Source of the DNA: Escherichia coli
GTDB taxonomy: Bacteria; Pseudomonadota; Gammaproteobacteria; Enterobacterales; Enterobacteriaceae
Length of the DNA stretch: 64,000 bases
Reading direction: 5' to 3' (one strand)
Assembly (NCBI RefSeq): GCF_003334785.1
Contig: NZ_QOWV01000003.1
The notes under the pieces are model-generated. The model ran no database searches and was not told where the DNA came from. It saw only the letters and a list, made by a program, of their open reading frames with translations. Both the position numbers and the translations under genes were made by a program. Positions 49,832 through 50,207 of the stretch are shown here, piece after piece. Each line of letters begins with the position of its first letter. Position 1 is the stretch's first letter.

Positions 49832-49913
49832 CTTTTCACCAAAAAGTAGTCAAATTCACCACGCCCTGCGCACCGTCGCGGGGCGTTTTGCTGTTAAATC
49901 AATAGATTATTTT

Positions 49914-49930
49914 TGGCATGATTCTTGTAA
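49914..49930 (+). promoter_or_regulatory. candidate sigma54 (-24/-12) promoter of pspG
   Basis: TGGCATGATTCTTGTAA resembles the sigma54 consensus TGGCAC-N5-TTGCA (GG and GT spaced 10 nt), about 35-50 bp upstream of pspG. Confidence 0.6.
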
Positions 49931-49964
49931 TGCCAGCAAGAGATTTCATATTTGGGAGAGCATC

Positions 49965-50207
49965 ATGCTGGAACTACTTTTTGTGATTGGCTTTTTTGTC
50001 ATGCTGATGGTCACCGGCGTTTCGTTGCTGGGCATTATCGCCGCGCTGGTTGTGGCGACGGCCATTATGTTCCTCGGCGGTATGCTGGCATTGATGATTA
50101 AGTTGCTGCCGTGGTTACTACTGGCGATTGCGGTGGTGTGGGTTATTAAGGCGATTAAAGCACCAAAAGTGCCGAAATATCAGCGTTATGACCGCTGGCG
50201 TTACTAA
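49965..50207 (+). CDS. pspG: phage-shock protein G (80 aa), small inner membrane protein
   Basis: ORF 49755..50207 trimmed to ATG 49965 after GGGAGAG; product MLELLFVIGFFVMLMVTGVSLLGIIAALVV... recognised as PspG. Confidence 0.9.
   Translation: MLELLFVIGFFVMLMVTGVSLLGIIAALVVATAIMFLGGMLALMIKLLPWLLLAIAVVWVIKAIKAPKVPKYQRYDRWRY

Follow-up and report, generated by a model that had tools for sequence, protein, structure and literature searches.

Sigma54/PspF control of the Escherichia coli pspG transcription unit and the sequence of the PspH small RNA in its 3' untranslated region

Introduction

Expression of the yjbO/pspG gene of Escherichia coli depends on RNA polymerase carrying sigma54, with PspF and IHF as activators and PspA as a negative regulator, as was reportedly found by Lloyd et al. 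in 2004. The gene, its sigma54 promoter, its dependence upon PspF and its position away from the psp operon are all known, having been published since 2004, and form part of the standard annotation. Together, pspABCDE and pspG make up the PspF regulon (Engl 2009, Jovanovic 2010, Huvet 2011; PMC2763126, PMC3068692, PMC3041696). PspG itself is an inner-membrane effector of the Psp response (PMC2763126) and co-occurs with the psp operon in genomes (PMC3041696). In Aeromonas salmonicida, pspG adjoins pspA and pspC paralogues (Huvet et al. 2011, PMC3041696).

A close described system is the pspA promoter, which resembles that of pspG in being activated by PspF with inhibition via PspA. PspF binds to the upstream activating sequences (UASs) of both pspA and pspG (Mehta et al. 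2013, PMC3709507). According to the literature, there is one UAS at pspG and induction is approximately 20-fold, compared with two UASs and a higher induction of 100-fold for pspA (Mehta et al. 2013, PMC3709507). Deletion of the pspG promoter leads to higher basal expression of pspA (Mehta et al. 2013, PMC3709507). In Salmonella Typhimurium, the orthologous site upstream of pspG (STM4244), TGGCATGATTTTTGTAAG, was found by ChIP-chip to be bound by sigma54 and, despite this strong binding, a promiscuous activator raised pspG by 1.4-fold only (PMC3844500). The transcript of pspG is also of interest at its other end, where the 3' untranslated region (3'UTR) is the source of PspH, a small RNA that sponges Spot 42 (Melamed et al. 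2016, PMC5145812). One paper has PspH being processed from the pspG mRNA while Melamed et al. suggest that it may possess a promoter of its own (PMC5145812).

The DNA considered here, referred to as the window, is a stretch of 64,000 nucleotides of E. coli, and the coordinates given are positions within this stretch unless stated otherwise. It had previously received an initial annotation made from the sequence alone.

Results and Discussion

Gene content and synteny

Comparison over the full length of the window gave 99.9% identity to K-12 MG1655, NC_000913.3 from approximately 4,212,974 to 4,276,875. The 701 bases around pspG were 100% identical to MG1655 and to many other strains, and this 701-base region was found in 5426 out of 5426 complete E. 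coli genomes, with dusA, pspG and qorA annotated. The window strain has the same pspG locus as MG1655, in which the gene is also known as yjbO or b4050, and differs from it elsewhere by a few SNPs and by one extra REP unit near 5550.

The pspG coding sequence occupies 49965..50207 on the plus strand, from an ATG at 49965 to a TAA at 50205..50207, and encodes a largely hydrophobic product of 80 amino acids. This product scored 90.1 bits with the NCBIfam equivalog TIGR02975, 'phageshock_pspG', for which the cut-off is 53.7, covering positions 1–63 of 64 in the profile, and matched Pfam PF09583 over its full length (positions 1–64 of 64, E 3.8e-25). More than 1000 close homologues share the same Pfam domain, and they are named PspG wherever the source gives a name. 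The naming of the 80-residue reading frame as pspG in the initial annotation is borne out by these two profile matches and by the annotation in all of the 5426 complete genomes. The coordinate of 49880 from which that annotation started the feature is, however, not the start of the gene. It falls inside the terminator of dusA and leaves out the enhancer described below.

The conservation of the locus was examined with a comparison set of 80 pspG loci taken from various species of Enterobacteriaceae, giving 79 distinct upstream regions which were aligned. The genera in the set include Escherichia, Citrobacter, Salmonella, Enterobacter, Klebsiella, Raoultella, Kosakonia, Lelliottia and Shimwellia. 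In the window, the upstream neighbour of pspG is dusA (48794..49831, plus strand; RefSeq annotation mapped onto the window). A DusA homologue ended 135–175 nt upstream of pspG in every one of the 80 loci, and qorA was convergent on pspG in 79 of them, the sole exception being a truncated contig. The Salmonella loci in the set have the same dusA-pspG-qorA layout as E. coli. This arrangement is the ancestral, conserved position of pspG. The psp operon is present in the same genome, E. coli K-12 possessing pspFABCDE at approximately 1.37 Mb and pspG at approximately 4.26 Mb, some 2.9 Mb apart, and the K-12 annotation shows no further psp gene within the interval matching the window. Thus pspG was correctly described as an 'orphan' in the sense of being unlinked to the psp operon, but the term does not suit a gene which sits in an ancestral and conserved position and is accepted as belonging to the PspF regulon.

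Promoter and enhancer

The initial annotation had noted a GG-N10-GT element before pspG, quoted as TGGCATGATTCTTGTAA and read as a candidate -24/-12 promoter of sigma54. The quoted string was found at 49914..49930 with exactly 10 bases between the GG and the GT. The 17-nt promoter motif, TTGGCATGATTCTTGTA, extends over 49913..49929 on the plus strand, with the GG at -25/-24 (49915-16) and the GT at -13/-12 (49927-28). It precedes the pspG start codon by 35 nt and is on the same strand as the gene. When both strands of the 64 kb were searched for TGGCAY-N5-TTGYW, the only match was TGGCATGATTCTTGTA at 49914..49929. The expectation for this pattern was 0.46 matches per shuffled window, and 35 of 100 shuffles gave at least one match, meaning that the -24/-12 pattern by itself is not statistically significant in 64 kb. 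The motif is considered to be more than a chance occurrence because of its placement before pspG and because the strict pattern was conserved upstream of pspG in 77 of the 80 loci, with the remaining three being one base off. In the alignment of the 79 upstream regions, four conserved blocks stood out amid variable DNA and the -24/-12 element was the fourth of these, following the enhancer, the dusA hairpin and the IHF box described below. Only a few base changes in the spacer distinguish the Salmonella sigma54 site from that of E. coli. The -12 element contains GT and not the consensus GC, and TTGT rather than TTGC was seen in nearly all of the loci. The same unusual TTGT at -12 is found in the -24/-12 promoter of pspA, TTGGCACGCAAATTGTA.

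One locus, that of Citrobacter werkmanii NBRC 105721 (locus L036, approximately 2950..2965 in its own numbering), has an altered -24 GG with TTGTCATGTTTCTTGT instead of TTGGCAT. Sequencing error aside, this change should inactivate the sigma54 promoter of pspG in that strain.

The motif in the window is identical to that of OS40, a sigma54 ChIP-seq site with the motif TTGGCATGATTCTTGTA located upstream of pspG (Bonocora et al. 2015, PMC4591121). OS40 was classed as 'C', denoting a promoter experimentally confirmed in EcoCyc, and pspG was among only five such genes to be up-regulated on sigma54 overproduction (PMC4591121). With its spacing confirmed, its identity to OS40 and its conservation in 77 of the 80 loci, the GG-N10-GT element stands as described, and the published ChIP-seq site supports its reading as a sigma54 promoter; a genuine sigma54 promoter had been recognised from the raw sequence. 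The transcription start predicted by Bonocora et al. is 25 bp before pspG, at 19 bp beyond the centre of the motif (PMC4591121). Counting 19 bp from the motif centre at 49921, transcription of pspG is predicted to start at 49940 on the plus strand, with a predicted leader of 25 nt including the ribosome-binding site GGGAGAG (49954..49960).

The initial annotation had also expected a PspF-type site, to be sought within 49780..49910, and such a site appears to be present in this range. The conserved block of the alignment at 49832..49866 (plus strand), CTTTTCACCAAAAAGTAGTCAAATTCACCACGCCC, contains two direct TTCACCA heptamers, the first at 49835..49841 (approximately -105..-99) and the second at 49855..49861 (approximately -85..-79 from the predicted start). 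The first heptamer begins 4 nt after the end of dusA. Heptamers of the form T[TA][CG][AG]C[CT]A have a background frequency of approximately 0.001 per position, and the spacing between them was exactly 20 bp in all 59 of the loci having both. A weight matrix was made from the 49832..49866 block and run over the 4.5 kb puuE-pspF-pspA-pspB locus of K-12. The top two matches were both to the pspA enhancer, one on the minus strand at 10.0 bits and one on the plus strand at 2.4 bits, and the next match scored -18. For 100 shuffles of the pspF-pspA locus the mean was -14.3 and the maximum 3.9, while the best match in the 64 kb window other than the block itself scored -7.8. The pspA enhancer (locus L003, 3421..3447 in its own numbering) contains TTCGCCA and TTCGCTA, likewise exactly 20 bp apart. 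Because the matrix finds the pspA enhancer and because the 20-bp heptamer spacing is common to both genes, the 49832..49866 block is taken to be the PspF UAS, with the exact PspF contacts predicted from the sequence. Matrices made from only the proximal or the distal half of the block did not cleanly find pspA, and the whole 33-bp block was needed for specificity.

The control regions of pspA and pspG therefore share two TTCRCYA heptamers 20 bp apart as well as an IHF-like box at approximately -45..-31. They differ in that the heptamers are 13 bp nearer to the start in pspG (-105/-85) than in pspA (-118/-98). Furthermore, a terminator hairpin separates the enhancer from the IHF box in pspG, which also lacks a divergent pspF promoter. 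There is also a discrepancy between the single UAS at pspG in the literature, compared with two at pspA, and the two pspA-like heptamers seen at pspG. The layout of two heptamers 20 bp apart bears on the assembly of the PspF hexamer and on the sharing of PspF between both promoters.

It might be argued that 49832..49866 is conserved because dusA ends and its terminator begins there, the real PspF enhancer lying elsewhere. The block does begin 1 nt after the dusA stop codon, and at its 3' end it runs into the start of the terminator stem. However, the block is located beyond the stop codon and therefore coding constraint is inapplicable to it, and a dusA end would not account for a matrix which picks the pspA enhancer on either strand, far above the shuffles and above the rest of the 64 kb, nor for a heptamer pair with the same 20-bp spacing as pspA at a distance, -79 to -105 from the promoter, that fits an enhancer. 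Hence this explanation is considered very improbable and the block is treated as the PspF UAS in what follows.

Terminator, IHF box and transcription of pspG

An intrinsic terminator for dusA was identified by a terminator scan at 49861..49890 on the plus strand, comprising a hairpin at 49861..49886 followed by TTTT. The G+C-rich stem has 10 base pairs, and the folding energy is -19.1 kcal/mol with a z of -2.67. Covariation was evident in the alignment, with compensatory double changes in 8 of the 10 pairs (40 species). The terminator is thus embedded in the control region of pspG, with the PspF enhancer on one side and the IHF box on the other, and its opening bases are shared with the end of the enhancer and with the proximal heptamer.

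The IHF site which had been expected in the initial annotation is represented by AATCAATAGATTA at 49897..49909 on the plus strand, approximately -43..-31, which is an exact match to the consensus WATCAANNNNTTR. It lies inside the range of 49780..49910 proposed for the search, between the enhancer and the promoter, and on the basis of this match the expectation appears to have been correct. The pspA promoter has an IHF-like copy with one mismatch at -45..-33. The match at pspG ends only approximately 5 bp upstream of the -24 element. IHF sites at sigma54 promoters are usually farther from the -24 element than this. The full consensus was found at the same offset in only 29 of the 79 loci, with a relaxed core in 67 of the 79, and for this reason the IHF site in use could be shifted from 49897..49909, the consensus match being a candidate for the site actually used.

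A scan for sigma70 promoters found none on the plus strand upstream of pspG, and a sigma70 reading of the pspG promoter was dropped on these grounds. The broader proposal, that pspG owes most of its transcription to dusA read-through or to a sigma70 promoter that escaped recognition, with the sigma54 motif being transcriptionally silent, can draw upon the many inactive sigma54 binding sites in E. coli (PMC4591121), the short T tract of the dusA terminator (TTTT) which makes some read-through plausible and the rise of only 1.4-fold of Salmonella pspG with the promiscuous activator (PMC3844500), but it is considered very improbable given that covariation backs a strong terminator, the sigma70 scan was empty on the plus strand, pspG rises on sigma54 overexpression from a promoter classed as confirmed (PMC4591121), a PspF-dependent 20-fold induction has been published (PMC3709507), the enhancer and the -24/-12 elements are conserved together and rpoN or pspF mutants have already been reported to lose the induction of pspG.

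The locus is therefore read as the pspG transcription unit of E. coli, controlled by sigma54 and PspF as the second target of the PspF regulon, and we would put the probability of this reading at approximately 0.96. None of the observations runs counter to it. Under this reading, sigma54 RNA polymerase would form a closed complex on TGGCAT-N5-TTGT (49914..49928) and PspF, the enhancer-binding ATPase, would occupy the UAS approximately 80–105 bp upstream via the two TTCACCA heptamers. Bending of the intervening DNA by IHF at AATCAATAGATTA would allow PspF to contact sigma54 and to drive the formation of the open complex at the expense of ATP. When there is no stress, PspF is kept inactive by PspA. 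Stress at the inner membrane, such as a mislocalised secretin or a loss of proton-motive force, releases PspF, raises pspG by approximately 20-fold and leads to production of the 80-residue inner-membrane effector. The embedded dusA terminator would insulate pspG from the transcription of dusA, and the pspG transcript would be expected to extend as far as a terminator held in common with qorA and so to carry the sequence of PspH, the Spot 42 sponge, in its 3'UTR. In this account, sigma54 occupancy, PspF binding, the extent of induction, control by PspA and the function of PspG are taken from the literature, while the identity of the gene, motif conservation, the match to the pspA enhancer, the IHF consensus, terminator covariation and synteny come from the present analysis.

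The 3' untranslated region

PspH (b4758) is annotated in K-12 within the pspG 3'UTR and corresponds to 50264..50374 on the plus strand of the window. It was absent from the initial annotation. Its seed, CTGTACCCTAC at 50309..50319, is the exact reverse complement of the 5' end of spf, nucleotides 1–11 of Spot 42, and was present in 77 of 79 loci. Folding of PspH gave a z of -5.4. A search of Rfam over 49700..50500 gave only sub-threshold matches resembling terminators, with neither PspH nor any other part of this range having a family there. Another conserved block, AAATCTGTCACTAT, was considered as the 5' arm of a stem in the PspH RNA and was rejected as its partner was not conserved across species.

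The terminator scan also identified a bidirectional intrinsic terminator at 50343..50374, conserved in the alignment, which would serve pspG and PspH on the plus strand and qorA on the minus strand. The hairpin common to PspH and qorA is at 50343..50365. No other convincing plus-strand terminator was found between the pspG stop codon and this hairpin, and consequently the sigma54 transcript should contain PspH. If so, envelope stress acting through the sigma54/PspF transcript would raise the amount of an RNA able to titrate Spot 42.

A CRP-like box, TGTGCGGATGATCACA, is a candidate for a second input. It lies at 50213..50228 on the plus strand, just after the pspG stop codon, and has one mismatch to TGTGA-N6-TCACA. 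In 78 of 79 loci there was a TG.G.-N6-TCACA box, its TCACA half being intact. Further downstream, a strongly conserved sequence resembling an extended -10 element, TGTCACTAT, is found at 50276..50284 on the plus strand, 27–28 nt before the PspH seed. The distance from the centre of the CRP box to the end of the -10-like hexamer was 63.5 in 34 loci, 74.5 in another 34, 62.5 in two and 53.5 in one. These classes of distance between the box and TGTCACTAT are steps of whole helical turns. A transcription start 7–8 nt after the hexamer would put the CRP box near -61.5, -71.5 or -82.5. These are the positions used by CRP at class I promoters. The conserved elements and their phasing hint at a separate class I PspH promoter, activated by CRP and with a start near 50291. 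Such a start conflicts with the annotated 5' end of PspH at 50264. A class II arrangement, with the CRP box at -43.5 from the annotated 5' end, was also considered but gave a poor fit and is broken by an 11-bp insertion in half of the species.

None of the papers searched reported a link of either PspF or CRP to PspH. A Yersinia microarray showed pspG to be down in a crp mutant. It is conceivable, although we would regard it as unlikely at present, that the pspG 3'UTR is a control point at which PspH receives two inputs, one from the PspF-dependent transcript and the other from a CRP promoter. Were this true, PspH would be turned on by cAMP-CRP, the same signal that represses spf, giving a coherent loop. 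If confirmed, the CRP and PspF inputs would connect the Spot 42 network both to envelope stress and to carbon status.

Other sequence features

Several further features were noted in the window. When coordinates are transferred from the K-12 annotation, tandem repeats of the REP/BIME type at 5466..5693 fall between aceA and aceK, and they include Rfam naRNA4 matches at 5466..5543 and 5564..5641. The array in the window is approximately 98 bp, or one unit, longer than that of MG1655. Additional copies of naRNA4 were found at 22549, 32220 and 36449. Three RNAs scored above the Rfam gathering score, these being a 5S rRNA at the start of the window (69..184, plus strand; rrfE by K-12 coordinate transfer), a lysine riboswitch (20450..20646, minus strand; upstream of lysC by K-12 coordinate transfer) and the enterobacterial small RNA STnc430 (22685..22834, minus strand). 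All three are expected features of K-12. Finally, a perfect CRP consensus core, TGTGAACTATATCACA, is present at 62297..62312, between yjcB and pdeC by coordinate transfer.
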